56,089 bases of DNA from a virus (lineage: Duplodnaviria > Heunggongvirae > Uroviricota > Caudoviricetes), in IMG/VR virus record IMGVR_UViG_3300031413_000570; one strand, 5' to 3'. Both the position numbers and the translations under genes were made by a program. Of this stretch, positions 116-54,226 are shown one piece after another. The notes beneath the pieces were generated by a model. That model saw only the letters and a list, made by a program, of their open reading frames with translations. It was not told the origin of the DNA and did not search any database. The stretch's first letter is position 1, and the number at the start of each line of letters is the position of its first letter.

Positions 116-2053
116 TTAGCCTGCCAGGACAGACTCCATGATTTCCATAATGGAATCTTCCTCTTCATCCCCCGACAAAATAGTCATATTTTCCATCTTG
201 TTCAGCATGATATCCATAATTGTCTTCTCCACAGTACCCTCTGCGTACAAGAAGTAAGCGTTAGCTAACTGGCCATCACGGTGGGTACGACCAATAATTT
301 GAGTCATTGACAATGCTGAGTAACGCATGTCGTGAATCAAAGTGGCTCGTGGGAATGGCGAAGCTAACGAACCGTCAGGGAGTTGCTCTTTCGCATGGAA
401 AGAAACTGCTTCTTCAACTGTGAACAAGATGACTTTGTTGTCACCTTTCTGGAACAGAATTCTTTCATGCTCTTTATTGATGAATTTACGTCCAGAGTAT
501 TCTGATACATCAACGCCTAACTTATTCAGTGAACTTTTGATTGCTTCCAGGCTTTCGATGAATCGAACCGAAACAGCAACCTGGTAGCCGTTTTCTAACA
601 AGTCAACAATGTTGTCCACTGTTTGTGCAGTTCGTAACAGAGATGCTTTCTGCGAGAATCTGAGTTGCTCAGCAAGAACTGATGTAGGGTTTTTACCTTT
701 CATCTTCAAGTTCATGGCTTTGCGGAACTCTGTCCACAATTTCTGGTACTCCTTCTCTGCTTCCATACCAAGAGTAACAGGTAAAGCAATGCGGTTCACT
801 GATGGCCAGCCGGCAATGTCTTCTGGTTTACGACGGATGGAAGGAGCTTTAGGATGGAACAAAGTTGCAGCAAGTCTTTCAACATCCTGCTTCTGTTGAG
901 CTCTGGATACTGCATCTTCAGGACTTGCGGGTTTCACCCAAGTCCAAGTGCCGCTCTTTGATTTCTTCACATGGAAACCATTCGCATGCAGCCAAGCAGG
1001 GTAGGTTTCCATAGTCAGATTCTGCCCAGCGAACTGACCAATAAGAGGGGCTAAATAACCTAACTCCAAAGGTGTTTGCCCGATAGTGGCTGACATCCAA
1101 ATCACGAAAGGTGCACGGGATGCGTCAGCACTGTATTGAGCAACCCGTTCAAATGCCTGCGTTCGCTGGGAAGTCTGATTTTTGATTTTGTGCGACTCAT
1201 CACAGATGATGAAGTCCCACAGGATGTAAGGTTTCCCTGATTCGGCAATGTGCTTATTCTTCGTTTTTGTCTTCTTCACTGTCTCAGCAGATTTGGGAAC
1301 GGTAAGCAGTTTCTTGTACTGCTCGTAGTTGATGACCAGGCATCGAAGGTTGTCAACACCTGAGTGGCGGATGGTGTTCTTCCAGTGAGGAACAGCACCA
1401 TTTGGGCAGATGATGAGCATTTTAGCTTTCTTCTGAGCTGTGAAGCCTTTAGCTCTTGCAGCCTCTGACGCCCCTATAAGACCTGTAAGACTCTTACCTA
1501 CCCCAGTGGCGTCAGCAACGATGAAACCTCGTCCACCGGTCGCTCCTGCCTTCTTGATAAGGTCTGCACCTTCTTGCTGGTGGGGACGCAACTGGAACAT
1601 TGCTCCTTGAGCTTTTTCTACAGGACGAATCTTACCGTTGATCTGGTCTTCAACCCAGCGAGAGAATGAGTAGTCTTCTGTTCTATACCATTTCAGTCTT
1701 TCAGGCAGAAGATTGCCTGCATAAACGTAAGCTCTGAGCCTTTCGACGTATTCAGCTCCGAGAGCTCGGGCAATGTCTCGTTCCATGTAAGGAACATCTA
1801 ACAGATGAACTTGTTTGTCTTTGTAGATAGCCCGCATTGCTTTTACGGTTTCTCCGAAAGAGTTCGGGTCTTTGACTCGTGAAGCTGTAGGTGTTGTGTT
1901 AGCTTTCTCTGCTTCTCTCATTTTGGCAGTGAAGCTGCCTTTGCTTCCAGGAACAGCTTTAGGGGGTGTGGGTTTGACCACAATTTTTCTTTTAGCTGCA
2001 GGTTTTTTGGCAGCTGTTGACTTTGCTGTTGGTTTTCTTCGTGGTGTAGCCAT
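116..2053 (-). CDS. SNF2/SF2-family helicase
   Basis: LRPHQ Q-motif, ADATGVGKS Walker A, DESH motif II, SAT motif III, QIIGRTHR motif VI. Confidence 0.85.
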   Translation of the reverse strand: MATPRRKPTAKSTAAKKPAAKRKIVVKPTPPKAVPGSKGSFTAKMREAEKANTTPTASRVKDPNSFGETVKAMRAIYKDKQVHLLDVPYMERDIARALGAEYVERLRAYVYAGNLLPERLKWYRTEDYSFSRWVEDQINGKIRPVEKAQGAMFQLRPHQQEGADLIKKAGATGGRGFIVADATGVGKSLTGLIGASEAARAKGFTAQKKAKMLIICPNGAVPHWKNTIRHSGVDNLRCLVINYEQYKKLLTVPKSAETVKKTKTKNKHIAESGKPYILWDFIICDESHKIKNQTSQRTQAFERVAQYSADASRAPFVIWMSATIGQTPLELGYLAPLIGQFAGQNLTMETYPAWLHANGFHVKKSKSGTWTWVKPASPEDAVSRAQQKQDVERLAATLFHPKAPSIRRKPEDIAGWPSVNRIALPVTLGMEAEKEYQKLWTEFRKAMNLKMKGKNPTSVLAEQLRFSQKASLLRTAQTVDNIVDLLENGYQVAVSVRFIESLEAIKSSLNKLGVDVSEYSGRKFINKEHERILFQKGDNKVILFTVEEAVSFHAKEQLPDGSLASPFPRATLIHDMRYSALSMTQIIGRTHRDGQLANAYFLYAEGTVEKTIMDIMLNKMENMTILSGDEEEDSIMEIMESVLAG

Positions 2054-2073: not shown

Positions 2074-2123
2074 AACGGAAACCCCCGCAACATGTGAGAA
2101 ATCATGTTGCGGGGGTTTCCGTT
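2074..2123 (-). terminator. Terminator hairpin downstream of rIIB
   Basis: Perfect 21-bp stem 2074-2094/2103-2123 with an 8-nt loop. Confidence 0.8.
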
Positions 2124-2126
2124 ACG

Positions 2127-2168
2127 CTCGACTCCCTTCGAGAGAAAGGAGAGAACCAGGGAGTCGAG
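2127..2168 (-). other. 3'-UTR hairpin with a C/U-rich loop complementary to the rII RBSs
   Basis: 11-bp stem 2127-2137/2158-2168; 2146-2158 is the exact reverse complement of 3907-3919. Confidence 0.55.
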
Positions 2169-2173
2169 AGGTC

Positions 2174-3904
2174 TTACAGAACCTCTACGATTGTAAGGTT
2201 GCTGATGCGGTCGGTGCGGTAAGGACGCTCTTTCTGGTCGCTGGTACGAATACCAACCAGAATTTCCTTACCAGCGTGACGGTGGGAAGCACGGATGTAG
2301 TCAGCTTCGAGGTTCACAGTACGAGCCTCACCACGAGCGGTCGTGTAGTCGAAATCGACTTCCACAACCATGTCCTGGTTGAGCAAGGTACGAAGCTCTT
2401 CGAGTACGTTGCTGTTGTCATCGACTTCAGTCTCGTCCTCAGTTTCAGCCTCAACCTCGTCCTCATCACCAGCACTGACGATGGTGATGTCAGTCATGCG
2501 GTCGATGCGGTAAGTGCGAGTCTCGCCGTCATCCTCACGGATACCAACAAGGAGGTCACCGTTATTACGGATTTCCTCAGCCTGGAAGTTGGTGAGTGTG
2601 CGAGGCTCGCCAGCAACAGTGGTGTAGTTGAAGTTCAACACAACAGTATTGCCAATGGCAATCTCAGCACGCAGAGCCTCTTCAACAGTAGAAGCCTGAA
2701 CAGCAACCTGAGTAGGAGCCTGGGGTTCAAGGAAGTGAGAAACAAGACGACCGTAGAAATCGTCCTCAGCCGCAGCAGCCTCATCCTGCTCGTCAGCTTC
2801 GTCCTGCTCGTCAGCCTCATCCCACTCATCTTCGCCACCGTAGACATCATCAAGAATGTCCTGGTCGATGACAAGGTTTGTCAGGTTAGCGTAAAGGTAG
2901 GAAGAAACCTCATCATTCTCATCAGCACCAATGAGAATCAGGTCAGTTCCGTTCATGCGAACTTCAGTCACAGCAAAGTCATCAACTGTAACATCGTCAC
3001 CGTTACCACGAGTGTAGGTGAATGAAACAAGAACCTCATCGACTGTGGTCAGAAGGCTTTCCAGAGTGGTGATGTTGTTGCGGTCTACCGTGTCCGCACC
3101 AGCGGAGTAGTGAGTGGTGGTAATCTGGTGTTCAGCCAGACCGACAACCTTGTAGCGGCTAACGCGAAGCTTCTGGAACGAAGCATGCTCAGGAACAGCT
3201 ACAACATCACGAGGGTTAATTTTCACTGTAAGGAGACGGCCGTTTGCATAGTTACTGGCGTAAGCATAGGAACCAGCGTGGAGTCCTGTGCTGCAACCAA
3301 CAGAATTGTCAGCATCCACCTTGGAGCGAGGAATCTCAACAACAGCACCCAGAGTGTTAGGCAGGTTGCTGTTCTCAAAGACCTGGTTGTTCACGATGCC
3401 ATAACCTGCCCAGCGTGAAGTACCGTCAGCGTTCACACCCTTGTAAGCGTAGAAGTCACCGTCAACGTCGATGGTGAGACCATGGCGGGTAATGAACTCG
3501 TACAGAGCGTCAACCGACTGTCCAGAAGGGTTGGTGTAGAGCTTCTCAAGGAAGGCAACAAGGCCGCGGTAGGAGTCAGGCGAGCCACCCTCATCAAGGA
3601 TGCGGAAGATGTGGTCCACGACGGAGTTACGAATCACGTCACCGTCGAAAAGAATCTCAGAACCGTTGAAAGTAATGCGGTCAGAGTAACGCTGAAGGCT
3701 GCGAGAGATGCTGGCACCAGGAGCAACAAGAGCTCGGAGGTTGGTCTCATCAATCTCATCAGCAGGAGTGGATGTGAGGGTGTTGATAATTGCTGCGTAA
3801 TTCGCATTGCTCGAATCAACAGTCTCAACTGAACCGTCACCGAAGATGAGTGTAGCGCCTGAACCCTGCGTTTCGGAATTGAAAATTGTATACATAACTG
3901 TCAT
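2174..3904 (-). CDS. rIIB: rIIB-like protein with three C-terminal WYL-like domains
   Basis: rIIB motifs DGDFYAYKGV, CSTGLHAGS, VKINPRDVVAVP, KLRVSRYKV; AAGGAG RBS; next to rIIA; repeats of the form FxY..G..R...R.YR.DR. Confidence 0.85.
   Translation of the reverse strand: MTVMYTIFNSETQGSGATLIFGDGSVETVDSSNANYAAIINTLTSTPADEIDETNLRALVAPGASISRSLQRYSDRITFNGSEILFDGDVIRNSVVDHIFRILDEGGSPDSYRGLVAFLEKLYTNPSGQSVDALYEFITRHGLTIDVDGDFYAYKGVNADGTSRWAGYGIVNNQVFENSNLPNTLGAVVEIPRSKVDADNSVGCSTGLHAGSYAYASNYANGRLLTVKINPRDVVAVPEHASFQKLRVSRYKVVGLAEHQITTTHYSAGADTVDRNNITTLESLLTTVDEVLVSFTYTRGNGDDVTVDDFAVTEVRMNGTDLILIGADENDEVSSYLYANLTNLVIDQDILDDVYGGEDEWDEADEQDEADEQDEAAAAEDDFYGRLVSHFLEPQAPTQVAVQASTVEEALRAEIAIGNTVVLNFNYTTVAGEPRTLTNFQAEEIRNNGDLLVGIREDDGETRTYRIDRMTDITIVSAGDEDEVEAETEDETEVDDNSNVLEELRTLLNQDMVVEVDFDYTTARGEARTVNLEADYIRASHRHAGKEILVGIRTSDQKERPYRTDRISNLTIVEVL
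2784..2819. repeat. 18-bp tandem duplication encoding the acidic linker (DEADEQ)x2
   Basis: TCCTGCTCGTCAGC(T/C)TC(G/A) occurs twice. Confidence 0.7.
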
Positions 3905-3951: not shown

Positions 3952-3981
3952 AGTTTACCAGCTTTATGCCAGTGAAGTCAA
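3952..3981 (-). promoter_or_regulatory. SigA-like promoter of rIIB
   Basis: TTGACT-N18-TAAACT with TG extension. Confidence 0.7.
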
Positions 3982-3996
3982 GTTTCTGAGCAAACT

Positions 3997-4341
3997 TTAG
4001 CGGTTTTTTGGGAAAAAGATTGGACTCAAATCAGTGTTCAACATGTTTACAATCTCTTCAGAAAGATGCTGGTCAAACGCCTTATTTTCATCCAAAGTCA
4101 CACCGCAAGAACAAGTGTTTGCATCTTTGACTGTGTGGGCTTTTACTACTTTCAGCACATGCTCAGTGTCATGACCTGCTTCGAGCCGGCGAACATACTC
4201 TTCAATGTGACGTACCGCTGTTGCAAGGGTGCCGTCTGTCGCCCACATAATAGGACTGGCTTTCCATACAAGCTTTTCATGGGCGGAACGAATTTCGGCG
4301 TAAAGCTCTTCTGTTGTTTTCTCAGGCATAATTTTCTCCAA
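3997..4341 (-). CDS. Hypothetical protein
   Basis: Non-overlapping ORF between rIIA and rIIB; start may be the ATG at 4329. Confidence 0.55.
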   Translation of the reverse strand: MEKIMPEKTTEELYAEIRSAHEKLVWKASPIMWATDGTLATAVRHIEEYVRRLEAGHDTEHVLKVVKAHTVKDANTCSCGVTLDENKAFDQHLSEEIVNMLNTDLSPIFFPKNR

Positions 4342-4353
4342 AAATAAAAGGGT

Positions 4354-4387
4354 ATGAGGCGGGACACATTTCTATGTCCCGCCTCAT
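4354..4387 (-). terminator. Terminator after rIIA
   Basis: 13-bp perfect stem ATGAGGCGGGACA/TGTCCCGCCTCAT. Confidence 0.7.
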
Positions 4388-4393
4388 CAATGT

Positions 4394-6607
4394 TTAGTTT
4401 GTTGCAGGGAACTTGAAGTTCAGGTACTCAACAATCAGTTCCACAGAAGCGTCACTGTTGCCACCAGCAAGAAGCTCAGGGTTCAGGCTTTCAAATTCAG
4501 TGTTGTACTCAGGGAAAACTGAAGCGTACATGTCACTGGTCACAATGCTGATGAATGTGGAAACCTTACGGTTCATCGAATAATCGAGGCCATCCACCTT
4601 AGCAGCCGCAGCCGTCCAGGCACGCATCTCTGTGTTCTGAATGTCATCAAGAACAGCTTCCATGTTCTGCGCCCAGGAAATATCATTACGGCTGTTCTCG
4701 AAGATGTTGATTTCAAGAGCAGTCAGAGGTGTAGCTGCAATGAAGTTTGCAACAGCAACAGGCAGAGCATCATCAAGGCTGACAGCTTCAGGCACAGCAG
4801 ACAGGAACGACTCAATTCGCACGTTGGTAGGAACCCGAATGAACGCAATGTCAGTCGAAGTAATGCCAGCATCAACATTGTAGTTGTTCTTAATGAACGA
4901 GATGGTGTTGTTGACCAGACGCAGTTCAGAGCTTGTAGCGCCAGCACCACGACCTGTGAGTTTGGCAATCTTGTGGGACAGTGAAGCAGTGTCAGCATCG
5001 TTCGTCTGAATGTAGACAACATGCTTCTTACCAGCAGCAACAGCAGCAGAGTAGCTGGCAGTCGAAGGACGACCGTTGCCCCATGAGTTGTTCACGCTGA
5101 GGAAGCTGACAGGAAGTGAACCGTAGTTCACTTCGCCACGAGTAGTTGTCCCGCTACGCAGGGCTCGCTTCTCAGTGTTGATTTCCTTACGGAGTTCAAC
5201 ACCCTTAGTCTCGAACTCCTCAGTAGTGTAGATGCCAACAGCAATCGCAGGAAGCCACTTGCCAAGGTCACCCTGCTTAGCAGTGGTGAACACAAGGTTG
5301 AAGCCATCTGAAATGCCGGGGTGCTTGACCTCGAACGCCTTGCGGAAACGGTTCAGGGACTGAGCCTCAGCACGGTCCTCCACGCCATACACAACCAGCG
5401 AACGACCGCTGAGTACACGGGAGTAAGGCTGAACAGTGTTCTTGGAACCTGAAGCACTGTAGAAGCTCTTGAAGTCCTCGAAAACAGGAACAACCTTCTG
5501 GGGAACAACCTCACCCTTGTACTTCCACTCCTGGTTGAAACCAGCAAGACGAAGCGACTCAGCAATGTCAAGAGCAGTGGTGCGGTTAGGAGCATCCTCG
5601 AAACGAGTCTGAATGTTCTTCACGACCTCCTTGTGGAGACGCTTCGTACCCTCAACAATGGCCTTCTTCGTCTTGTCGGAGAAGATGAGAGTGTCACGAG
5701 CAGGAGTCATGTCAACAGAACCGATGGGAAGGTTCACCACAGTGTAGTCGTCAAGGCTGCCGTAGGTGCTGCCGTAGTTCTGGTCGTCAAGCTCAGACTT
5801 GCTGAACGTGTAAGAAATGGGACCGACAAGAACAATCTTCTCGTTGTAGTTCTTGTGAAGCTTGACGCGACGGTTGTTCTTCTCCCAGTCAACAAGGTCA
5901 TTCAGCATCCAGCCAGCCTCGCCAAGAGCGGTGAAGCTCTCAGTGTTGTAGACGCTGTTGGTGTTCAGCTGACCGTTGACGCTGACACTTCCTGCAGGGA
6001 AGCCAAGAAGAAGGTTGGAGTTGTTGAAGATTCGGGAAAGACGCTCAGGGTCAGGAAGGGTGATGGAAACAACAGTCCCGTTGCCGTCCGTGGTGTTCTG
6101 AGGAGCAAGGAACTGACCCTTGCCGACGTTGTTCTCACCCTTGCGGAACAGAACGGTGTGCTTCACGCCATCCTTGACGGAGGTGACAACAAAGTTCGTG
6201 GCGACGCTGAAAGCAGACTTGGCTCCAAGACCGAAGCCACCAATCTGAGAGTTGGTCTTACGCTTCGTGGAAGCACCGTACTTGGGGAACACGTTCTTCA
6301 GGACATGCTTGTCCATACCAGTTCCGTGGTCACGAATGGTGAAAGTCGGGTTCAGACGGGTGGGGAGGGTGACCTCGACAGGGTTGGGGAAGACAAGACC
6401 GAAGCTGGTCTTTGCACCAAGAGCAGCAACCATGGCGTCCAGAGCGTTCGCAATGTACTCACGGGCGATTGCCTTGTACTCGTCAACGTACATGTTGGTG
6501 AGCATGTTCATGATGTGGGGAGTGGACTTTGCATCGAGAGTCATGTCGACCTCATCGTCAAACGTAGCGTTCGTGATGACTTCTGCGACCTGGGTGTCAA
6601 TCTTCAT
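4394..6607 (-). CDS. rIIA: rIIA-like protein (GHKL/HATPase_c N-terminus)
   Basis: REYIANALDA, IRDHGTGM, YGASTKR..N.QIGGFGLGAKS; AGGAG RBS; next to rIIB. Confidence 0.85.
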   Translation of the reverse strand: MKIDTQVAEVITNATFDDEVDMTLDAKSTPHIMNMLTNMYVDEYKAIAREYIANALDAMVAALGAKTSFGLVFPNPVEVTLPTRLNPTFTIRDHGTGMDKHVLKNVFPKYGASTKRKTNSQIGGFGLGAKSAFSVATNFVVTSVKDGVKHTVLFRKGENNVGKGQFLAPQNTTDGNGTVVSITLPDPERLSRIFNNSNLLLGFPAGSVSVNGQLNTNSVYNTESFTALGEAGWMLNDLVDWEKNNRRVKLHKNYNEKIVLVGPISYTFSKSELDDQNYGSTYGSLDDYTVVNLPIGSVDMTPARDTLIFSDKTKKAIVEGTKRLHKEVVKNIQTRFEDAPNRTTALDIAESLRLAGFNQEWKYKGEVVPQKVVPVFEDFKSFYSASGSKNTVQPYSRVLSGRSLVVYGVEDRAEAQSLNRFRKAFEVKHPGISDGFNLVFTTAKQGDLGKWLPAIAVGIYTTEEFETKGVELRKEINTEKRALRSGTTTRGEVNYGSLPVSFLSVNNSWGNGRPSTASYSAAVAAGKKHVVYIQTNDADTASLSHKIAKLTGRGAGATSSELRLVNNTISFIKNNYNVDAGITSTDIAFIRVPTNVRIESFLSAVPEAVSLDDALPVAVANFIAATPLTALEINIFENSRNDISWAQNMEAVLDDIQNTEMRAWTAAAAKVDGLDYSMNRKVSTFISIVTSDMYASVFPEYNTEFESLNPELLAGGNSDASVELIVEYLNFKFPATN

Positions 6608-16246: not shown

Positions 16247-16280
16247 AGAAAAGTCACTCTTCAGCAGAGTGGCTTTTCTT
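16246..16280. terminator. Bidirectional terminator
   Basis: AAGAAAAGTCACTCT / AGAGTGGCTTTTCTT. Confidence 0.7.
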
Positions 16281-18624
16281 ATTTGACCGTCAATCTGTAA
16301 CGAGTCTTACCTGCATCCCAGATACGTGGCAAGTTGTTCAACAGTGCCAATTCACGTTCCGTCAAACCTTCCTGCCACACCAAAGAGTCATCATTCTTGA
16401 ACCGCTTCAGACGGTAACCGAACTTGTGTTTACGCTCCCCGCCAACCACATACATGTAATCAGGAGACAGCACTCTGTCAGCATCAAAACCATGAGACTC
16501 ATACAACCCACCATCACTGATAGTGTGGTCAGCAAACGTAATGAACGAACTCGGCAAATACGTCTTCGTAGCATGCTTCAGCAGCTTCGTAAACCCACCT
16601 GTAACGCTCCCAGCCGTCGCGTAACGGACAATGTTCAAGGTTTCGCCCGCTTCCTTCTTCAACACCATCAAAGCCTTCACAACGCCCTCAGCGTCCTTCA
16701 AACCCAGATAGTAAGAACCAGAAGCAAAGCCCTGCACATGATTCAAACCCAGAAACAGCTTCGCATCCTCAGTTGATAAAACAGCAACAGAAGTCTTCCG
16801 AGCAAACACTTTACTCGTCACAACATTCAGCTCAGGATACAACTCAGCCAAACGAGAAGTAACACCTAACTTATGAGCCAAAGCACGCAAAATCACCGGC
16901 TTACGGTCACGCCAGTCATCCTCCCAAATCTGCAACAACTGCACACCAGCAGCCTTAGCAGCATCATACTTATCCTTATGATAGTTACGACCCTTACCAG
17001 CAGACTCACTATGCCAATACAAGCCATTGAACTCAATACCGAACTGCTTCTCAGGAATGAACAAGTCAATCTCCTGACGGTTCCCCAAGACTTTACGGTT
17101 AGACTGCTCAACAGCAAAGCCTAGCTTAGTCAAGAACTCAAACAGCTCTAACTCAGGCTTAGAGACAAAGTTGTGGTTCAGAACTGCACACTCGGGACAG
17201 CCTCGGCCTATACGACCATAAACAAAAGTTTCCCATTCATGGCCATAATCGCAAATCCACCACGCTCGATGCTCAGAGCCTTTGCTTACCAATTTAGGAG
17301 TCAAATCTCCATTTTTTGTTGGATGCCACTGAGCAGCAATGGCTGGATGAGTTGTTTCTAAATCGTTGAATCCAGCTAAGCGCTTTTTCCCAAAGCAAAT
17401 AGGGCAGCCTTGTCCTTCTACTCTTTTGTAAACAGCGGCTTCCCATTCGTGACCGTATTCATCTACCCACCAAAATTTGTTGTGAGAACCATATACAACA
17501 TCAGCAGGGGTAACCTGGTTGTTTTTGGCTGGATGCCATTCAACTGATAATTCTGGGTACAATACAGCTAAACTGTTGCCCTCATCTGTCTTCTTATTTG
17601 CACAAAATGGACATCCTGCACCTCGGGCTCTATTTTTGACAGAAGCTTCCCAATCATGACCGCATCGACCAGACCACCAAACTTTTGTATTTGTGCCTGC
17701 TGACAGAGAACTGATTGTTAACCCAATATTTTTAGTTGAATGCAGTTCAGAAGCAAGTGAAGGAGTTGTAGTTGCTAAGTCATTGAATCCTGCTAGCACT
17801 CTATGACCAGAACAAAATGGACAACCATCATTTCTGGTAACTCGTTTTCCAACAGAAGCTTCCCATTCATGATTGCAAGGACCAAGCCACCAAACTATCT
17901 TAGAAGAGCCAGCACTAAGATGATTAGGTAAGAGCTCTCCGTTTTTTGTTGGATGCCATTGTCTTGCAATTAGTTCAGGAATTTGTTTTTTTGGAGCTTT
18001 TGTCGAATTCTTTAAAGCTGGACTGTTACAACTGGGGCAGCCTCGTCCAGCAAAACGACTTCTGAGCTCGGAATACCATTCGTGTCCGCACTCACCCAAC
18101 CACCACACTTTTTCGTGACTGTACGGTGAGATAGTAGCCAAATTCAAATGAGCATTTTTATCTGGATGCCATTCAGCGACTAAAGAAGGATTCTTAGTCG
18201 CCAAATCATTGAAACCAGGAAGGATACGCTTACCCGAACAAATAGGACAACCAAACTGCCGGCGAAGCTTCACCTGAACATCCCACTCATGGTCATGCTC
18301 ATCAACCCACCAAACAACAACTTTGCTTCCCTCAGTAACATCCTGAGGAGTCAAATCACCATTCTTAGTAGGGTGCCACTGGGCAGTAATTTCAGGTTGG
18401 GTAGTAGCTAAATCATTGAAACCAGCCAACACTGCACGGTTAGAACAAAACGGACAACCGTTACCCTTCAACCGAGTCTTAGGAGCAGCCTCCCAAGCAT
18501 GACCACAATCACCCAGCCACCAGGCTTTCTTCGCGGAACCCGAACTTGCCTCAGAAGCCAGCCAACCCTCATTCAACACAGGATGCCACTGGGCAACAAG
18601 AGAAGGAGGGAGAGGGTTTTTCAT
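16279..18624 (-). CDS. Zn-ribbon (DUF4379-like) repeat endonuclease, Vsr/DUF559-like nuclease plus Hef-like C-terminus
   Basis: Seven W..H.W....R...GCP.C repeats; SKPE..L, EIDLFIP, IEFNGLYWH, LLQIWEDDW; C-terminal ITFAD..ISDGGLY and IWDAGK. Confidence 0.8.
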   Translation of the reverse strand: MKNPLPPSLVAQWHPVLNEGWLASEASSGSAKKAWWLGDCGHAWEAAPKTRLKGNGCPFCSNRAVLAGFNDLATTQPEITAQWHPTKNGDLTPQDVTEGSKVVVWWVDEHDHEWDVQVKLRRQFGCPICSGKRILPGFNDLATKNPSLVAEWHPDKNAHLNLATISPYSHEKVWWLGECGHEWYSELRSRFAGRGCPSCNSPALKNSTKAPKKQIPELIARQWHPTKNGELLPNHLSAGSSKIVWWLGPCNHEWEASVGKRVTRNDGCPFCSGHRVLAGFNDLATTTPSLASELHSTKNIGLTISSLSAGTNTKVWWSGRCGHDWEASVKNRARGAGCPFCANKKTDEGNSLAVLYPELSVEWHPAKNNQVTPADVVYGSHNKFWWVDEYGHEWEAAVYKRVEGQGCPICFGKKRLAGFNDLETTHPAIAAQWHPTKNGDLTPKLVSKGSEHRAWWICDYGHEWETFVYGRIGRGCPECAVLNHNFVSKPELELFEFLTKLGFAVEQSNRKVLGNRQEIDLFIPEKQFGIEFNGLYWHSESAGKGRNYHKDKYDAAKAAGVQLLQIWEDDWRDRKPVILRALAHKLGVTSRLAELYPELNVVTSKVFARKTSVAVLSTEDAKLFLGLNHVQGFASGSYYLGLKDAEGVVKALMVLKKEAGETLNIVRYATAGSVTGGFTKLLKHATKTYLPSSFITFADHTISDGGLYESHGFDADRVLSPDYMYVVGGERKHKFGYRLKRFKNDDSLVWQEGLTERELALLNNLPRIWDAGKTRYRLTVK

Positions 18625-30334: not shown

Positions 30335-33300
30335 CTATGGTAAGTTGAAATTCTGTTTTACCCAAGATGGAGGCCAATTTTCATTAGGCCATGTCGAGTT
30401 AAATCCTTGAGGAGCGGTCTTAGGATAAAGACCGTCATTTTTAGAAGTATTGCAATGTTGACAAGCAATTTGCCCATTTTCAAGTGTAGCATCTCCTCCT
30501 TTAGACTTTACTTGGGAATGGTCCACATGAGTTTTGTATTTAGCTCTTGATACTTCCATCCTACAGAATACACAGACATTATCAGGGTTTTCAGCTTTTA
30601 CCTCATCCTTTGTTTTCGGAGTAAAATTTTTTCCTGATGTTGGACCGTTTGATTTCCCTGCTTTGATAGGTGGCCAACCATAAGAAGGCGGCGTCGGAGT
30701 TCCTGGAAATTTACCAGAAGAAGACTTATAAGTGTTGAGTATTTTTGAATCAAGCTTGACAAATTTGCCACTAACTTTTGTTGGTACTCCACCAGGGAGT
30801 GCCATACTGACACCCAAGGTACCAAGTTTTCCTACAGTGAACTTTGGGTTACATACATCAACAACGCCTGGAATTTTTTCGTTGAAATAATCTGTTGATA
30901 AGCCGAACGTAAGCTCATCCATAACTCCGAATCCAGTGCTACCAGTAAAATCAAAGTAACCAGTGGGTATGGTGGTGAATAGACCAAGTGGGTCAGTGAA
31001 AGCTAAAGGATTTCCTGAGGCATAAGAATAAGCTTCGTTGGTAGCCTGCTCCAAAGGGTCTCTGGAAAGGAACCCACCTGTGCTTGGTTCATACCAACGA
31101 GCTCGAAGGTTATACAGTCCTGTATCAGAGTCTAACCATTCGCCAGCAAAGCCGTATCTAGTTTTTGAATGGGTTGGGTCTGTAGTTCCTTTGGATTGCA
31201 ACTGACCATACGCAGTGTAGACGTATGTTGCTATCTGTACTCCAGTTTTGCTGGTTGCTGAAACAACTGAGCCTAAAGCATCCGCATGAAGATATGTGAC
31301 TGTTCCTGTTGATATTTCTCGTTGAGCTATTGGTGCGTTGTATGGACCATAGAAGTATTCGTAATCTCCGTCAGAGAGTAGTAAAGGAACGCTACTTTGG
31401 TAATCCCAAACGAAGTCATCTTTATCTGAATTGACAGTTTTGGTTTTAACCAAACCATTAGTATCATAAGAGTAATCTACTTGTTTGGAGCCTTTGGTAA
31501 TGCTTGTTAGCTGGTTCTGTTCGTTATACGAGTACTCAGTATCAGTACCAGCAATACGGTTTCCACGAGCGTCATAAGAATTTGTTGAGTCTTTTGTGGT
31601 TACAAGTTGGTTTGCTTGGTTGAAGCTTTGAAGGTTTCCTAAGTTGTTAGTTAGGTTACCAGTATTAGTGTAAGAGTATTTTCCTGCAGTGGTCTGGTCA
31701 GAATCCACTGAGGAAATACGACTCAACGCGTCATAAGCATAGGTTTCAGCTAAAGCATCTGGAACGTTTTTAATAGTTGTTTCTGTACTACTTAGGTAAC
31801 CAGTTTTCTCGCTATATCCATAAGCTTTTTCGTACAGGCTGGTGGTCCCAGCTTTGACAATCGTTTTATTGACAGCATCTATATTTGTGTATTCATAGGA
31901 CTGTTTTGTAGTGTTAGGGTTTGTCGCAGTTGTGATATTGTTAGTGTTATCATAAACATAACTGAAAGAGCCCGTGTCAGCGTTCGCTGCTGTAAGTAAG
32001 TTTCCTACATTGTCGTAGGTGTAGTTGATGCTCTTACTTGAAGGGTATGTGATTGAAGCAACTTCATTCCGAGGGGTATAAGTGTACTGAACACCTGCAC
32101 CTGTAGGAGGACCTCTGCTTGTCACGTTACCAACGTTGTCGTAAACATACTGAGTAACGCTTGTCCCTTGCTTTTCTTGAACAAGATTGTCGTTTGCATC
32201 ATAAGCATACTCATTGACAGCATCTGCAAAAGTCTCTTTTACCAACTGATTGTATTGGTAGTCATAAGTTGCAACTGAGGTATCTGGACGAACTTCTGTC
32301 TTTAGGTTACCTGCGGCATCGTAGGTGTAACCAGTAACTGAGTTATCAGTGTTGGTGAAACTGGTTGGTTGTCCTATTTTGTTGTAAGACCATTTTTTGA
32401 GACCGTTATCAGAATCTAAGAATGACAACTTTTGGTTCATGTTATTATAAACGCTTGTTTCTACAGCAAGGTTGGGTAATATTGTTGAGACTAAGTTGCT
32501 ATTAGCATCATAAGAGTAGGAAGTGGTTTTCCTTTGGGCATCAACTGTTTTAGCTGGTCTTTGCATGGAATCATACGTTGTTGAGACTTTTATTCCGTTA
32601 CTGTTTATAGTTTCAACAACATTGCCATTTGCATCGTAGTTATAGTGAGTTTCATTGCCTTTAGCATTTGTGAGAGTAACCAAATTACCAACTGAATCGT
32701 AAGAGTAGTTAGTCTTCTTGCTTCGAGCATCAGTCATTTCAAGAAGCTGCCCCATGCTGCTGTAAACATAGTTAGTATTCTTCAAGGTTGCATCGGTTGT
32801 TCTTGTGATGTTACCCATTGAATCGTAAACTTTTTTAGTCACACGGGCAGCAGCATCTGTTGCTGTAAGTTCACGATTCATCGCATCGTAAGTATAAGTG
32901 TTAGTTTTACCTAAACGGTTAGTTGTCTTAGTGACATTACCGTTTGCATCATACTCAATTGCTTCACTATATCCGTTAGGATGCTTAATACTGCTCACTA
33001 AGCCGGCAGAGTTGTAAGAATAGATTGTTTTGAGACCTAATTCATCAGTGGCAGTTTCCAGATAGCCATCAGCATTGAATGTCTGTTGGGTACTGTGGTT
33101 TAGAGGGTCTGTAACTTGAGAAGCAAGACCTTGAGGAGTGTAGTTGAAAGATGTCACTCCTCCATCAGAAGCTGTCACTGCAGAGGTTGTACCATCTGAG
33201 TTCACTGCATAAACGGTACGGTTACCATTGAAGTCTATTAAGGCTACGAGATTTCCATTCGAATTGTACTCATAGGTGCGAGTTGACCCTGCTGGGTTTG

Positions 33301-35758
33301 TTTCAGAGAGTACACGGTTCAAAGAATTATACGTGTAGGTGCTTATATTTCCAGAACGGTCTTTTACTTGTAAAGGATTACCACTGGCATCATAAGTTGT
33401 TTGGACGCTACTTCCATCAGGGTATGTCGTAGAGGTCCTGTTTTGAGCTTCATCATATTCGTAGTATTCGTCATAACTCTCAGCAGCTACATCATATTCG
33501 ATATGATAAACCTGATTTAAGTTGTTGAAGTAATGATAGTCTTCTCTACCATTGGGGTTTGTTACTAAAGTCTTATCGATATCATAAGATATTGTGGTGA
33601 TTTTACTTGCAGTGTCAGTTTGTTGAGTAACTCTCTTCTGGTCATCGTAAACATTTTTAGTGGTTCCACCTTTTGCGTCTTTGAAAGAGGTAATAAGATG
33701 AGCAGAGTAAGCATAGGTCACGCTTGTTGCATCAGGGTAAGTCACTTTGGACAAATCTGAACCAGTAGTGTAAGCATACTGTGTTGTTTTTCCTCCAGTT
33801 GTAGTCACTGATGCAATGAGGTTATTTGTTCCCCATGAGATGGTGAGTTGTTGACCTTTGCCGTTCGAGATTGTAACAAGTTTACCTGAGGAATAAGTCA
33901 GAGTAAGTGTGTTACTGTTTAGGTCTGAAATGGTTTCAAGTTGACCAGCCGCATTGAAAACAAATGTTGTCTCCTTGTCTCTGGTGAAGATGAATTTGCC
34001 ATTTGCTTGTTGTAGCGTAGCTCGTGTTTTTACATCTGTTGTCCAAATTCCAGCAGAGCTTTTAGTGAAACTTGCAGTTGAACCATTTTCTTGAGATAAA
34101 ACAACACTTGACGTTGCATTCAAAGCTGTTGAATTTGCAGATTTGATATTCAAATCGTAGTTACTATTCCAGCCATAGCCAAAGGTACCTTTGACTGCAC
34201 TTTTACTCGTTCCGTATTCACGAGTAAAAGTAAGAGGAGTGAGGCTTTGAACATCCGCATCGGTTTCGGACAACCAAAATTCACCAGTAACAGTATTGAT
34301 AGGGTCAACTACACAAGTTTGGGCACATACCTGTGAGGTTGACCCTCCTCCAGTGTGAATCCCTGGAGATGCCAAACTTTTACTTGATGCAGAAGATGGA
34401 GCACTTCCTCCTGAATTAATTTTATAGCTAACGGAAGCTTGGATGTCGTACATATACCCAGCAGGCTCTGAAGTCACTCCGGCACCAGATTCACTCCAGC
34501 GCCCTACTACATAAGTAATTCCATCTGCCACGTCAAATTTTTCATTAGGGTATCCATAAGTGCTACCTGCCCCTTGGGCGTTACATTCTGAAGCATATTC
34601 ACATACTTCTAAAATTTTTGAAGTCTTATTGTCAACAATTGCACTTGAGAAGTAATGTAAAGTCTGGTTGAGCTTACCCTGGTAATACACTTGGTCATCT
34701 ACTAGCGATTCAGTGGTTACATTAAGGACAAAAGGTAATCTTTTGACAGTTGTCGTGTTACTAACGGCTCGAATATCAGTCAATTCCTCAGCAGAAGATT
34801 CTGCATCAAGGTCTGCATTAGCAGCTAAGTATGCCTGATACTGGTGCGAACTATCATATTTGATGTCAGTCTGGCAACTATGTTCATTCAAACCTCCAAG
34901 ACAATAATCTGAAGTTACGCTTACAAAAGTTTGGGCAGTAACATCGTAGATGTAAATACGATGGCTATCAGGAACTACTTGGTTCGCAGTTGCTAAAAGA
35001 CTAAATGTGGCTCCTTCTTCGACCATGGGATTGTCAGATTTTAGCTTCAGCACCCAAGGAGTGCGACTCACCGTAACCGTGTTCGTCTGAGCAACAATTC
35101 CTGCCACCCCAGAAATATTAGTTCGTTCACCCCCATCTGCAATATATCCAGTGAAAGTGGAAGTGTCCTCCGACTGCATTTCAAGATACAGGGTGGTGCA
35201 GTTTGCAATATAGTCACATTCTGCAACAATTTCACCTGTGGAGTCTTCAACAATGACTAAGTTTTTACCAGATGGCAGTGTACCTTCTGACTCAGCATAA
35301 ATTTCGTACTTTTCCCAGCTATCTACAGTCTCAGAATCTGAGTAGAGAAATACATCTGGTACTTGATTAGCTACTTCAACTTGAGATGAAGAAACATTTG
35401 CTGTACGGGCATAGAAAGATTGGTTGTCTGTGTAATCAGAAGCAGGGTATTCGTATATACACGAGGTGCCTGTATCGCACTGCTGCACAGTCTCATTGGT
35501 AGTGGCATTAATAATCGACAAATTATCTTGTGTTTCACTTATGTCAACATCAGCCGTAGCAGTTATTTTTACTACATCACTAGATTCTTTTGTCTGGTCA
35601 GTCGTGATTTGAACAGACTGGACTTGATGAGTATCATCCAATTGAGTGGTAGGTATTTCTGGATTCACATGAGGGTCCGGTTCAGCTGCCATAGCTGGTT
35701 GAACTGTTAATCCAGTAAGAACGAGAACAGATGTTACAAATATGCCGATTAGACGCAC
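30335..35758 (-). CDS. Secreted Rhs/YD-repeat polymorphic toxin with a C-terminal HNH nuclease
   Basis: Signal peptide (..QPAMA|AE); DUF6531-like DPINTVTGEF; YD repeats; core end RYGFAGEWLD..GLYNLRARWY..DPLGL; CVFC...HVDH...GG....NGQIACQHCN. Confidence 0.9.
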   Translation of the reverse strand: MRLIGIFVTSVLVLTGLTVQPAMAAEPDPHVNPEIPTTQLDDTHQVQSVQITTDQTKESSDVVKITATADVDISETQDNLSIINATTNETVQQCDTGTSCIYEYPASDYTDNQSFYARTANVSSSQVEVANQVPDVFLYSDSETVDSWEKYEIYAESEGTLPSGKNLVIVEDSTGEIVAECDYIANCTTLYLEMQSEDTSTFTGYIADGGERTNISGVAGIVAQTNTVTVSRTPWVLKLKSDNPMVEEGATFSLLATANQVVPDSHRIYIYDVTAQTFVSVTSDYCLGGLNEHSCQTDIKYDSSHQYQAYLAANADLDAESSAEELTDIRAVSNTTTVKRLPFVLNVTTESLVDDQVYYQGKLNQTLHYFSSAIVDNKTSKILEVCEYASECNAQGAGSTYGYPNEKFDVADGITYVVGRWSESGAGVTSEPAGYMYDIQASVSYKINSGGSAPSSASSKSLASPGIHTGGGSTSQVCAQTCVVDPINTVTGEFWLSETDADVQSLTPLTFTREYGTSKSAVKGTFGYGWNSNYDLNIKSANSTALNATSSVVLSQENGSTASFTKSSAGIWTTDVKTRATLQQANGKFIFTRDKETTFVFNAAGQLETISDLNSNTLTLTYSSGKLVTISNGKGQQLTISWGTNNLIASVTTTGGKTTQYAYTTGSDLSKVTYPDATSVTYAYSAHLITSFKDAKGGTTKNVYDDQKRVTQQTDTASKITTISYDIDKTLVTNPNGREDYHYFNNLNQVYHIEYDVAAESYDEYYEYDEAQNRTSTTYPDGSSVQTTYDASGNPLQVKDRSGNISTYTYNSLNRVLSETNPAGSTRTYEYNSNGNLVALIDFNGNRTVYAVNSDGTTSAVTASDGGVTSFNYTPQGLASQVTDPLNHSTQQTFNADGYLETATDELGLKTIYSYNSAGLVSSIKHPNGYSEAIEYDANGNVTKTTNRLGKTNTYTYDAMNRELTATDAAARVTKKVYDSMGNITRTTDATLKNTNYVYSSMGQLLEMTDARSKKTNYSYDSVGNLVTLTNAKGNETHYNYDANGNVVETINSNGIKVSTTYDSMQRPAKTVDAQRKTTSYSYDANSNLVSTILPNLAVETSVYNNMNQKLSFLDSDNGLKKWSYNKIGQPTSFTNTDNSVTGYTYDAAGNLKTEVRPDTSVATYDYQYNQLVKETFADAVNEYAYDANDNLVQEKQGTSVTQYVYDNVGNVTSRGPPTGAGVQYTYTPRNEVASITYPSSKSINYTYDNVGNLLTAANADTGSFSYVYDNTNNITTATNPNTTKQSYEYTNIDAVNKTIVKAGTTSLYEKAYGYSEKTGYLSSTETTIKNVPDALAETYAYDALSRISSVDSDQTTAGKYSYTNTGNLTNNLGNLQSFNQANQLVTTKDSTNSYDARGNRIAGTDTEYSYNEQNQLTSITKGSKQVDYSYDTNGLVKTKTVNSDKDDFVWDYQSSVPLLLSDGDYEYFYGPYNAPIAQREISTGTVTYLHADALGSVVSATSKTGVQIATYVYTAYGQLQSKGTTDPTHSKTRYGFAGEWLDSDTGLYNLRARWYEPSTGGFLSRDPLEQATNEAYSYASGNPLAFTDPLGLFTTIPTGYFDFTGSTGFGVMDELTFGLSTDYFNEKIPGVVDVCNPKFTVGKLGTLGVSMALPGGVPTKVSGKFVKLDSKILNTYKSSSGKFPGTPTPPSYGWPPIKAGKSNGPTSGKNFTPKTKDEVKAENPDNVCVFCRMEVSRAKYKTHVDHSQVKSKGGDATLENGQIACQHCNTSKNDGLYPKTAPQGFNSTWPNENWPPSWVKQNFNLP

Positions 35759-52058: not shown

Positions 52059-52313
52059 TTATTCCGTTATCGGTGGTGACAGTTCAGGGAACACAACAAG
52101 CTTGTCGAAATAAGCCATCAGAGCTTGTGCTTCGAAAGAGTTCTTCTTCATTATCACAGTGTAAAGATGACCGTCAGTGACTTTGAAGTCCGTGAGGACT
52201 CTCAGCTGGTCACGGATGATTTCCAAAGACACGATGCGGTCGAAGCGAAGGTAGAAAGATTGACCGTTGTTGCCGTTTATTTTGATGAATGGGGTATCTG
52301 GTTGGGTTGTCAT
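52059..52313 (-). CDS. Hypothetical protein
   Basis: ATGA overlap with the upstream endonuclease stop. Confidence 0.65.
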   Translation of the reverse strand: MTTQPDTPFIKINGNNGQSFYLRFDRIVSLEIIRDQLRVLTDFKVTDGHLYTVIMKKNSFEAQALMAYFDKLVVFPELSPPITE

Positions 52314-54226
52314 TTGAGTTCTTTTCTGTATCGTGTTTTGCCGGCGTCCCAGATGCGGGGGATGTTGTTCAGTAGAGCAAGCTCTCGTTCACTCAGATTT
52401 TCATCCCATAGAAGAGTCGGGTCGTCACGGAACTTTTTGAGTCGGTAACCGAATTTGTGTTTGCGTTCCCCTTTCACTACGTACATGTAGTCAGGTGGAA
52501 GTTCTTTATCTGCGACGAAACCGTTGTTCTCATACAGCCCGCCATCACTGATGGTGTGGTCAGCAAACGTAATGAAAGCAGAAGGCTGATAGACACGCTC
52601 GACATGCTTGAGGAGCTTTGTAAACCCGCCTGTAACGCTCCCAGCTGTCGCATAACGGATGATGTTCAGAGTGTTGTCACGTTCTTTACGCAACACCATC
52701 AATGCTCTTAGAACGCCGTTGGAGTCTTTCAGACCCAAGTAATAAGACCCTGCTGCAAAGCCTTGAACATGGTTTGAACTAAGGAATGTTCTTGCTTCTG
52801 CTGTAGTAACTTCAACCACGCGAGTCTTACGAGCATAAATTTGGGCTGAGACAGTTTCCAGTTCAGGATAAAGTCTGGCTAACTCTGAAGTTTTTCCTAA
52901 CTTATGAGCTAGAGCCCGAAGAATGACTGGCTTACGGTCACGCCAGTCATCTTCCCAGATTTGAACCAGGGTTATGCCCGCAGTCTTAGCTGCTTCATAC
53001 TTGTCTAAATGGGCGTCTCTCGATTTCCAATGTTCATTGTGGTAATAAATACCATTGAACTCAATAGCAAAATTCTTATCCGCAATGAACAAGTCAAGCT
53101 CTTTGCCTTTGAGTGCTGAACGATTGGATTGTTCGACAGACAGACCCAGAGCAGTCAGAAAATCGTAAAGTTCGTTTTCAGCTTTAGACACAAATGTAGA
53201 AGACCAGCATTTAGGACAGCCGTTACCAGCTACACGATTGTTAATGGCTGAAATCCATTCATGCGAACAGTCTGCTTGCCACCAAATTTTCTTCTCGCTA
53301 CCTCTACTATGAAAATCAGGTAAAAGTCCGTCATTTTTGTCAGGATGCCATTCGGCGGCTAACAAAGGATGGGTCACGTTCAAATCATTGAAACCAGGTA
53401 GGACCTTACGACCATCGCAGTAAGGACAATGGGGATTAGCTTTTTGCTTTACAACAGGTCTTTGCCAGCTGTGACCTTTGTCATCTTTCCACCAAATAGT
53501 CATCGTTGAACCTGACATTATGGTAGTAGGATCAAACTCGTTCTTTTCTATGTCCCAAAATGCCATTAGTTCAGGGTTGGATGCAACATCTGTCAGCCCT
53601 GCAATTGCTTGCTTTCCCGCACAATAAGGGCAATTACGAGGATTTGCAGATGTTCTACCATCTACCGTGGCTTTCCATTCATGACCTTGAGAGCATTCCC
53701 ACCAAATCTTTTTAGTTGAATGAGAACTAATTGAAGTCAGCTCTTTTGCCTCGTTTTTGGCGGTTGATACCTCTTCTACCAAATGGGGATGAGTAGTCAA
53801 AAAGTCGTTTACCCCAGGAATGACTTTCTTCCCCGAACAAACAGGACATCCACGGCCAGCAATACGGTGAGCAACTGTGCTTTCCCATACATGACGAGAA
53901 TCTTTACTGCATAACCACCAGGCTTTTGAGGTAGAACCAAAAGTGTAATCTGACTGAAGTTTGTGTCCATTCAAAGTAGGATGAAATTCTGCTGCAATGT
54001 CAGGATACACAGTGGCTAAGTCATTAAAACCTGGAAGAATCTTACGACCTGAACAAACTTGGCAACCATTTGAGTTGAGTAGTTCTCTAAACTTTTGGGA
54101 CCATTCATGTCCTCTAAGGCACCGCCAATGAACTACTTGGGTTGCATTATCGCCAAAGGAGCTGAACAGTCTTTGATTTTTTGAGTCGTCAAATAACTGT
54201 TCAGCTCCTTCACGAGATAAAGACAT
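52310..54226 (-). CDS. Zn-ribbon repeat endonuclease (paralog of 16279-18624)
   Basis: Five CP.C repeats; SKAENEL, ELDLFI, IEFNGIYYH, QIWEDDW; same Hef-like tail. Confidence 0.8.
   Translation of the reverse strand: MSLSREGAEQLFDDSKNQRLFSSFGDNATQVVHWRCLRGHEWSQKFRELLNSNGCQVCSGRKILPGFNDLATVYPDIAAEFHPTLNGHKLQSDYTFGSTSKAWWLCSKDSRHVWESTVAHRIAGRGCPVCSGKKVIPGVNDFLTTHPHLVEEVSTAKNEAKELTSISSHSTKKIWWECSQGHEWKATVDGRTSANPRNCPYCAGKQAIAGLTDVASNPELMAFWDIEKNEFDPTTIMSGSTMTIWWKDDKGHSWQRPVVKQKANPHCPYCDGRKVLPGFNDLNVTHPLLAAEWHPDKNDGLLPDFHSRGSEKKIWWQADCSHEWISAINNRVAGNGCPKCWSSTFVSKAENELYDFLTALGLSVEQSNRSALKGKELDLFIADKNFAIEFNGIYYHNEHWKSRDAHLDKYEAAKTAGITLVQIWEDDWRDRKPVILRALAHKLGKTSELARLYPELETVSAQIYARKTRVVEVTTAEARTFLSSNHVQGFAAGSYYLGLKDSNGVLRALMVLRKERDNTLNIIRYATAGSVTGGFTKLLKHVERVYQPSAFITFADHTISDGGLYENNGFVADKELPPDYMYVVKGERKHKFGYRLKKFRDDPTLLWDENLSERELALLNNIPRIWDAGKTRYRKELK

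Follow-up and report, generated by a model that had tools for sequence, protein, structure and literature searches.

An rIIB protein of a tailed phage with a C-terminal array of three WYL-type domains

The rIIB gene and its C-terminal modules

The IMG/VR virus record IMGVR_UViG_3300031413_000570 (Caudoviricetes), a stretch of 56,089 nucleotides from an uncultured phage, referred to here as the window, carries on its minus strand an open frame (positions 2174-3904) that codes for a protein of 576 residues plus the stop codon. The protein is very probably an rIIB protein that bears at its C-terminus an array of three WYL domains, which have an Sm-like barrel fold, on flexible acidic linkers, and that is made alongside an rIIA protein of the GHKL ATPase type. 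The interval to which the original prediction drew attention (2174-3067) comprises residues 280-576 and the stop codon. A frameshifted or chimeric reading frame was considered and rejected, as the 95%-identical locus L003 keeps the frame and the changes between the two are mostly synonymous. The AlphaFold2 model of the whole protein has a mean predicted local distance difference test score (pLDDT) of 82.

The rIIB core occupies residues 1-265 (3110-3904). An rIIB identity of about the first 260 residues had been proposed beforehand, and the profile search bears it out: residues 19-263 match PHROG 609, 'RIIB lysis inhibitor', with an expect value (E) of 6.7e-50, and four more rIIB PHROGs also match. 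The precomputed annotation of 13 out of 13 close homologues includes the Pfam family PF26926. The BFVD structure search retrieved rIIB proteins with E down to 1.4e-24, the alignment extending over the core. Among solved structures no sequence match to the core and no Foldseek match in the PDB were obtained; the wide structure search was dominated by the barrels and scarcely probed this part of the protein.

The region that follows the core consists of three modules of about 75 residues separated by acidic linkers, all encoded on the minus strand. Module 1 (residues 275-350; 2855-3082) is modelled as a helix and five strands with a pLDDT of 83-91. It is followed by linker 1 (residues 351-404; 2693-2854), predicted to be disordered (pLDDT below 50), with 19 Asp or Glu in 54 residues and an isoelectric point (pI) of 4.05; it is here that the insertions and deletions relative to L003 and to the related protein P0002 fall. 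Module 2 (residues 405-480; 2465-2692) is modelled with a pLDDT of 90-93 and contains an intact R-x-Y-R-x-D-R sequence. Linker 2 (residues 481-497; 2414-2464; pLDDT below 50) contributes to a stretch with 12 Asp or Glu in 18 residues (480-497), and module 3 (residues 498-576; 2177-2413), with an intact K-x-R-x-Y-R-x-D-R, ends the protein. The whole protein has a pI of 4.2, with 105 Asp or Glu against 42 Lys or Arg and long runs of the acidic residues, and even modules 2 and 3 have a net negative charge.

The three modules are related to each other. BLASTP aligned modules 2 and 3 at 42% identity (E 5e-15) and modules 1 and 2 at 33% (E 5e-7), values far beyond chance, on which grounds a fortuitous repeat or low-complexity artefact was rejected. 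The three tandem modules with acidic linkers thus stand as they had been read from the sequence, and so does the motif FxY..G..R...R(T/P)YRxDR, which appears as FNYTTVAGEPR...RTYRIDR in module 2 and FDYTTARGEAR...RPYRTDR in module 3. Module 1 is degenerate, as had been claimed: its version (FTYTRGNGDD...SSYLYAN) has no arginines left, with Ser, Leu and Asn at the columns of R61, R64 and R67, and keeps the hydrophobic and glycine framework. Because module 1 differs from its counterpart in L003 by seven synonymous changes and one non-synonymous change, it is held by purifying selection despite the loss of the arginines.

Evidence for the WYL fold

Assignment of the modules to the WYL family rests on sequence profiles together with structure models. 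The Pfam WYL profile (PF13280) passes its cut-off of 21.8 bits marginally, scoring 22.6 bits over the full length and 26.3 bits over residues 275-576. No single module exceeds the cut-off, module 2 scoring 18.7-19 bits, module 3 13.5 bits (profile positions 16-70) and module 1 giving no match. Nevertheless WYL was the best Pfam family for eight of nine modules taken from this protein and three relatives, it was passed by 24 of 58 module-bearing proteins (best E 3.8e-18), and it stands in the precomputed annotation of 11 of the 13 close homologues. A profile built from the nine modules and run against all PDB sequences placed the WYL proteins DriD and PafBC in seven of the top eight positions, weakly, at E 0.2-0.5. 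With hhalign the module profile matched P0056, a protein of 141 residues that scores 38.6 bits on Pfam WYL, at 97.8% probability (E 1.2e-12).

AlphaFold2 models agree on the fold. The tail modelled from 13 sequences gave modules with one helix and five strands each (pLDDT 80-90), and the whole protein modelled from 37 sequences gave modules with one helix and a five-stranded barrel (pLDDT 88-95); in these models the linkers have a pLDDT below 50 and the predicted template modelling score (pTM) is 0.32-0.48. Foldseek retrieved PafBC and BrxR at a probability of 1.00. A second structural aligner placed WYL proteins in its first 13 rows, with Hfq next at about 7, and a search of 48,161 representative chains made independently of Foldseek returned the same order, the top seven rows being WYL proteins. 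For module 3 the Z-scores were 9.3-9.4 for PafBC, 8.7-8.8 for BrxR, with a root-mean-square deviation (rmsd) of 2.5 Å over 75 residues, 8.8 for CapW and 8.4-8.5 for DriD (22% identity). Hfq and Sm proteins share the fold at Z 6.8-7.3; an assignment to Hfq was set aside as less likely, given that this Z of about 7 lies below that of the WYL proteins (8.4-9.4) and that no LSM or Hfq family was matched in Pfam.

The Trp-Tyr-Leu motif that gives the family its name is variable in the modules, where the equivalent columns hold Gly, Asp or Glu, then Glu, Asp or Ser, and then Leu, Ile or Val, so that only the hydrophobic character of the last is kept. The motif is a weak criterion because it is degenerate in accepted members as well, reading NYL in DriD and WHV in CapW (PMC9186387, PMC11662680). 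By sequence and model, then, the modules are to be regarded as WYL domains. This is what the original prediction had supposed for residues 275-576, and the modelled barrels, their closest structural matches and the marginal Pfam pass all point the same way.

Residues equivalent to ligand contacts

CapW, DriD and PafBC bind single-stranded DNA (ssDNA) by means of their WYL domains (PMC11662680, PMC11804915). In DriD the residues K202, R204, W206 and R207 contact the ssDNA (PMC9186387); CapW binds it 'in an essentially identical manner' through Ser and Arg residues that are conserved (PMC11662680), and PafBC also senses ssDNA (PMC11804915). The DriD residues were mapped onto the modules by a HMMER sequence alignment, as distinct from a structural superposition, to chain 7u02_B, numbered from NYL as 191-193 (PMC9186387). 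In this alignment K202, R204, W206 and R207 correspond to module columns occupied by Glu or Lys, Arg, Tyr and Arg. The contact residues would be R463, Y465 and R466 in module 2, which are invariant in alignment A2, and R560, Y562 and R563 in module 3, while module 1 has Ser, Tyr and Leu.

Conservation was counted over 91 modules from 37 rIIB fusion proteins aligned to the module profile. The best-kept columns were F21 (91 modules), Y23 (90), G53 (89), Y63 (89), R61 (85), G28 (82) and R64 (60 Arg and 10 Lys). The equivalents of the DriD contacts are thereby among the best-kept residues of the module family, as far as the alignment of sequences can tell, and module 1 of the window protein is one of only six of the 91 that do not have R61.

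The barrels might instead hold proteins and not nucleic acid. In an adaptor of this kind the modules would bind a peptide or a partner, be it rIIA, a protein of the membrane or a target in the host, in the manner of Tudor or SH3 domains. Foldseek also returned the triple-Tudor proteins Spindlin1 and SETDB1 (E 3.6e-4 to 1e-2), which appear because they likewise have three barrels in a row, and the purifying selection on an arginine-less module 1 would suit such a role. However, Spindlin superimposes on the array with an rmsd of 15-23 Å and on a single barrel with a Z of about 7, lower than those of the WYL proteins; with no Tudor match in Pfam, the Tudor assignment was set aside as less likely. 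Moreover, all the sequence evidence leads to WYL and none to Tudor, and the conserved surface residues are arginines, where a Tudor domain would have an aromatic cage. We consider a pure adaptor function very unlikely.

Occurrence of the fusion

Fusions of rIIB with one to four modules were found in 37 metagenomic proteins. Among 50,697 GenBank phage records, 2,611 matched the window protein, all of them through the core, and none covered 80% of it. The tail was covered by none of the 2,600-2,850 rIIB-matching records of that set; a tblastn search of GenBank phages with the tail came back empty at a cut-off as loose as E <= 1, and when the single-module relatives P0030 and P0036 were compared with GenBank phages no record covered their tails. 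In IMG/VR the tail search was empty, and the family alignment, used as the query, brought up just two distant rIIB loci, which have no tails. A tail search in a collection of 5.8 billion proteins returned 13 clusters, all metagenomic, of 570-639 residues and tagged PF26926 with or without PF13280, one of which had been named 'YafY' by the Joint Genome Institute (JGI).

The module profile, run against 1.84 billion representatives, found only 70 proteins at E <= 0.001. Local hidden Markov models (HMMs) showed that most of the longer ones consist of the rIIB core and one to four modules, the remainder being small stand-alone single-module proteins (61-100 residues) and a few others. Four proteins, P0018 (460 residues), P0028 (774 residues), P0019 and P0035, have modules without a full rIIB core; P0018 keeps about 115 core residues ahead of its four modules, and P0028, which lacks the core, carries four or five. 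The rIIB-WYL architecture recurs at the loci L003-L008, L010, L017 and L027 and in the proteins P0002-P0014, P0017, P0020-P0032 and others. Most close relatives have four modules, of which the window protein lacks the third. P0002 has a tail 92% identical to that of the window protein, and other close homologues are 31-38% identical. A short module tree, which carries no support values, clusters the first modules across proteins and suggests duplications within proteins in several lineages.

The close relatives P0003-P0014 have linkers rich in Ala, Val, Pro and Thr that are not acidic, and the acidic linkers are, on this comparison of sequences, a trait of the lineage and not of the family. 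This bears on the possibility that the array acts as a sponge or decoy. It would then absorb the ssDNA fragments or nucleotide signals that activate host WYL regulators, namely CapW and BrxR on cyclic-oligonucleotide-based antiphage signalling systems (CBASS) and bacteriophage exclusion (BREX) systems, and PafBC and DriD on damage regulons; or else the very acidic tail would mimic nucleic acid and keep the DNA-binding defence proteins of the host occupied. The modules do resemble the ligand-binding domain of the host sensors, PafBC being the best structural match, several copies in one chain would give more capacity, and the low overall pI and long acidic runs fit a mimic. In addition, the nearest cultured rIIB relatives are from actinophages, whose hosts use PafBC (PMC11804915). 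A decoy, however, leaves the fusion to rIIB in particular unexplained, stoichiometric titration of ssDNA seems inefficient, and the acidity is not shared by P0003-P0014. We regard this explanation as quite unlikely.

Of the 80 closest rIIB relatives taken from JGI metagenomes, eight were seen by HMM to carry modules, and Pfam added a ninth, L017; the tails of the rest are of diverse kinds. At L017 (10001-11428) two C-terminal modules pass Pfam WYL at 27.8 bits, yet hhalign of the window module profile against the L017 tail gave a probability of 0.6%, that is, no detectable relation. The L017 fusion may therefore be either very diverged or an independent second origin of an rIIB-WYL protein. 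The rIIB gene of L017 is followed by an HD-domain-like gene. The tails of the rIIB relatives at L009-L082 are highly variable, with a few weak zinc-ribbon, LIM-like or TRASH matches, and the rIIB C-terminus appears, from these sequences, to be a general site for accessory domains. Some of the metagenomic contigs that harbour rIIB relatives are very large: 791 kb for L007, 885 kb for L010, 682 kb for L019, 475 kb for L027 and 1,103 kb for L045; among P0003-P0014, too, one contig measures 820 kb. The five may represent megaphages, chromosomes of hosts that carry prophages, or errors of assembly; to our knowledge the largest of them exceed the largest phage genomes described.

No description of an rIIB-WYL fusion was found in the literature searched, where queries for rIIB together with WYL were dominated by work on Fc-gamma-RIIB. 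The papers holding both 'WYL domain' and 'rII', most of them judged by title, describe no fusion, and a survey of jumbo phages that mentions rIIB and WYL treats them separately (PMC7824862). The supposition that the fusion was undescribed holds for the collections and the literature searched, even though relatives already bear the tags PF26926 and PF13280 in automatic annotation; about nine of the 80 nearest metagenomic relatives have it. The fusion is a new domain architecture made of two known families, rare but recurrent, and absent from the cultured phages and the literature searched.

Gene neighbourhood

The gene for the rIIA homologue (4394-6607, minus strand), of 737 residues with an N-terminal GHKL-type ATPase domain, matches PHROG 612, 'RIIA lysis inhibitor' (E 2.1e-64), and Pfam HATPase_c_3 (E 3.5e-10). 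It lies upstream of rIIB on the same strand, with one open reading frame (ORF) of 114 residues in between (3997-4341, minus strand) that belongs to no Pfam or PHROG family. L003 has this ORF with 100% identity, and none of the other loci retrieved, L005 among them, contains it; rIIA and rIIB are directly adjacent in L005, L004, L006 and L017. A terminator-like hairpin (4354-4387) follows rIIA, ahead of the 114-residue ORF. Upstream of rIIB a consensus scan gave a promoter-like site (3952-3981, minus strand; TTGACT, an 18-nucleotide spacer, TG and TAAACT), such sites being no more numerous than in shuffled sequence. After the rIIB stop codon two stem-loops can be read (2075-2168, minus strand); the second, which is G+C-rich and followed by GTTT, looks like a terminator 3' of rIIB and ahead of the start of the next gene.

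This next gene (116-2053, minus strand) codes for an SNF2-family helicase with a Lys/Arg-rich N-terminus, matching Pfam SNF2-rel_dom (E 8.9e-13) and PHROG 62 (E 4.6e-41). An SNF2 helicase is also found downstream of rIIB-WYL in L005 (11866-13830, 58% identity) and in L004 (2645-2893). It is the downstream neighbour in the three closest lineages and is not seen at more distant rIIB loci.

The rest of the window encodes a ribonucleotide reductase, an NAD-dependent ligase, an FtsK-like ATPase, homing endonucleases and a DnaB/RadA-like ATPase. No GenBank phage matches the window at the nucleotide level. Two large paralogous HNH/homing-endonuclease genes (16279-18624 and 52310-54226, minus strand) match PHROG 559 and 3339 with E from 1e-83 to 1e-90, one located after the ribonucleotide reductase gene and the other after that of the DnaB/RadA-like ATPase. 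Between 28000 and 38000 the G+C content is 36-41%, against 45-50% elsewhere, and this region contains an ORF of 1,807 residues (30335-35758) with a C-terminal HNH nuclease match.

A proposed nucleic-acid-binding arm

We tentatively propose, by analogy with the host regulators and without holding it to be the probable outcome, that the array serves as a multivalent arm for binding nucleic acid, by which rIIA and rIIB would be placed on ssDNA. Modules 2 and 3 would hold short single-stranded nucleic acid through their conserved Arg-x-Tyr-Arg patch, in a DriD-like manner, and the array would thus gather or keep the counter-defence pair rIIA/rIIB at intermediates of phage replication or recombination. 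Module 1, which has lost the binding residues, would probably be a structural or protein-contact adaptor beside the core. A single-stranded nucleic acid is the ligand that we infer for modules 2 and 3 because the WYL barrels keep the DriD-type contact residues; any consequence for rIIA/rIIB and any connection with exclusion are likewise presumed. Rex-type abortive-infection systems have been proposed to sense a DNA intermediate of replication or recombination.

Several points weigh against such an arm. The main caveat is the acidity: a pI of 4.2, with net acidic charge even on modules 2 and 3, would be out of the ordinary for a protein that binds nucleic acid. The ligand of a WYL domain can also be a different one, for instance RNA or c-di-GMP (PMC11880434). 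In DriD and CapW the linker and the WCX domain, both absent from the window protein, supply part of the ssDNA pocket (PMC9186387, PMC11662680), and no conserved residue of the 91 modules corresponds to Tyr192, with which DriD binds phosphate. Finally, any coupling of the modules to the function of rIIB is a conjecture.

The original prediction had put forward a ligand-gated rII complex. In such a switch an ssDNA, RNA or nucleotide signal bound by the WYL modules would alter the shape of rIIB and rIIA or the way in which they assemble, so that counter-defence is on only when the ligand is present. Every characterised WYL regulator binds its ligand allosterically (PMC11662680, PMC12041258), the ligand-contact residues are conserved in the modules, and the acidic linkers could conceivably fold back on basic patches from which a ligand would displace them. 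On the other hand, the linkers that connect core and modules are predicted to be disordered, the relay of CapW works through the Trp of the motif packing on a linker helix (PMC11662680), whereas here that Trp is not conserved and neither such a helix nor a WCX domain exists, and a copy number of one to four is hard to square with a fixed allosteric path. We therefore judge a switch unlikely. From models and sequences a tether is favoured over an allosteric gate, because the linkers are disordered and the pTM is low, because the number of modules varies from one to four, and because the protein has none of the elements that convey allostery in CapW and DriD: the tryptophan of the motif, a helix in the linker and a WCX domain (PMC11662680).

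Significance

Few phage genes have been known for as long as rIIA and rIIB. Together their products let T-even phages grow despite RexAB (PMC13716836), and expression of rIIB alone triggers a bacterial gasdermin/CARD system (bioRxiv 10.1101/2023.05.28.542683). How rIIAB inhibits RexAB has been described as unclear (bioRxiv 10.1101/2023.05.28.542683). One could speculate, as a rather doubtful extension of the proposal above, that the WYL array reveals the target of rII: rIIA and rIIB would work at the ssDNA of phage replication or recombination and mask or process a signal that is read by Rex-like systems and by host WYL regulators. If this were true, the fusion would give the first hint, at the level of sequence, of what rII acts on in molecular terms, and the same logic would apply to T4.

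The recurrent fusion of rIIB to a domain with characterised relatives that bind ssDNA leads to a testable hypothesis, in which rII function is tied to nucleic-acid intermediates, and the long-unexplained rII system gains a molecular handle that can be put to the test. Moreover, WYL barrels that stand as tandem arrays on the side of the phage, without a DNA-binding head, mirror the arrangement in the host, where WYL proteins control CBASS, BREX and DNA-damage regulons.

Comparison with known systems

The closest cultured counterparts of the core are the rIIB-like proteins of actinophages that infect Microbacterium, Streptomyces, Arthrobacter and Rhodococcus, which are 36-44% identical over residues 1-265. 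Like the rIIB gene of the window, the genes for T4 rIIB and for the actinophage rIIB-like proteins (PHROG 609) lie downstream of rIIA. The difference is in the tail, which in the rIIB proteins of the cultured phages examined is short or unrelated: the protein of TunaTartare has 331 residues, that of Mimi 310, and that of Pumpernickel, with 407, has no WYL domain. N4 gp34, of 696 residues, gives no Pfam WYL match; in BFVD, alignments with certain rIIB proteins of the N4-like and Lacusarx-like kinds extend over 424-550 columns, hinting at barrels in their tails.

WYL barrels outside transcription factors are known from proteins that have no helix-turn-helix (HTH) domain, namely WYL1, the accessory protein of Cas13d (PDB 6oaw), and the bacterial PIF1 helicase. 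The WYL1 accessory protein and the PIF1 WYL domain bind single-stranded nucleic acid. Chain 6oaw_B of WYL1 superimposes on the modules with a Z of 6.5 and 22% identity. These proteins differ from the window protein in having a single WYL domain in another context, tandem arrays not being reported for them.

The regulators built of a winged HTH, a WYL and a WCX domain (PafBC, DriD, CapW, BrxR) are the systems that the modules resemble most, and the window protein departs from their plan in several ways. In place of the DNA-binding head it has the rIIB N-terminus, with no HTH family in the Pfam scan; it has no WCX dimerisation domain, each barrel leading into a disordered linker or closing the chain; and it carries three barrels per chain, is net acidic and does not conserve the Trp and Tyr of the motif. 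What is common to both is the Sm-like barrel with its N-terminal helix, which superimposes with an rmsd of 2.5-3.1 Å over 74-77 residues for BrxR, CapW and DriD, and with Z-scores of 8.4-9.4 for PafBC, BrxR, CapW and DriD. The modules share with these regulators, furthermore, the C-terminal sequence R-x-aromatic-R-x-D-R-(I/M), which in DriD contacts the ssDNA (PMC9186387).

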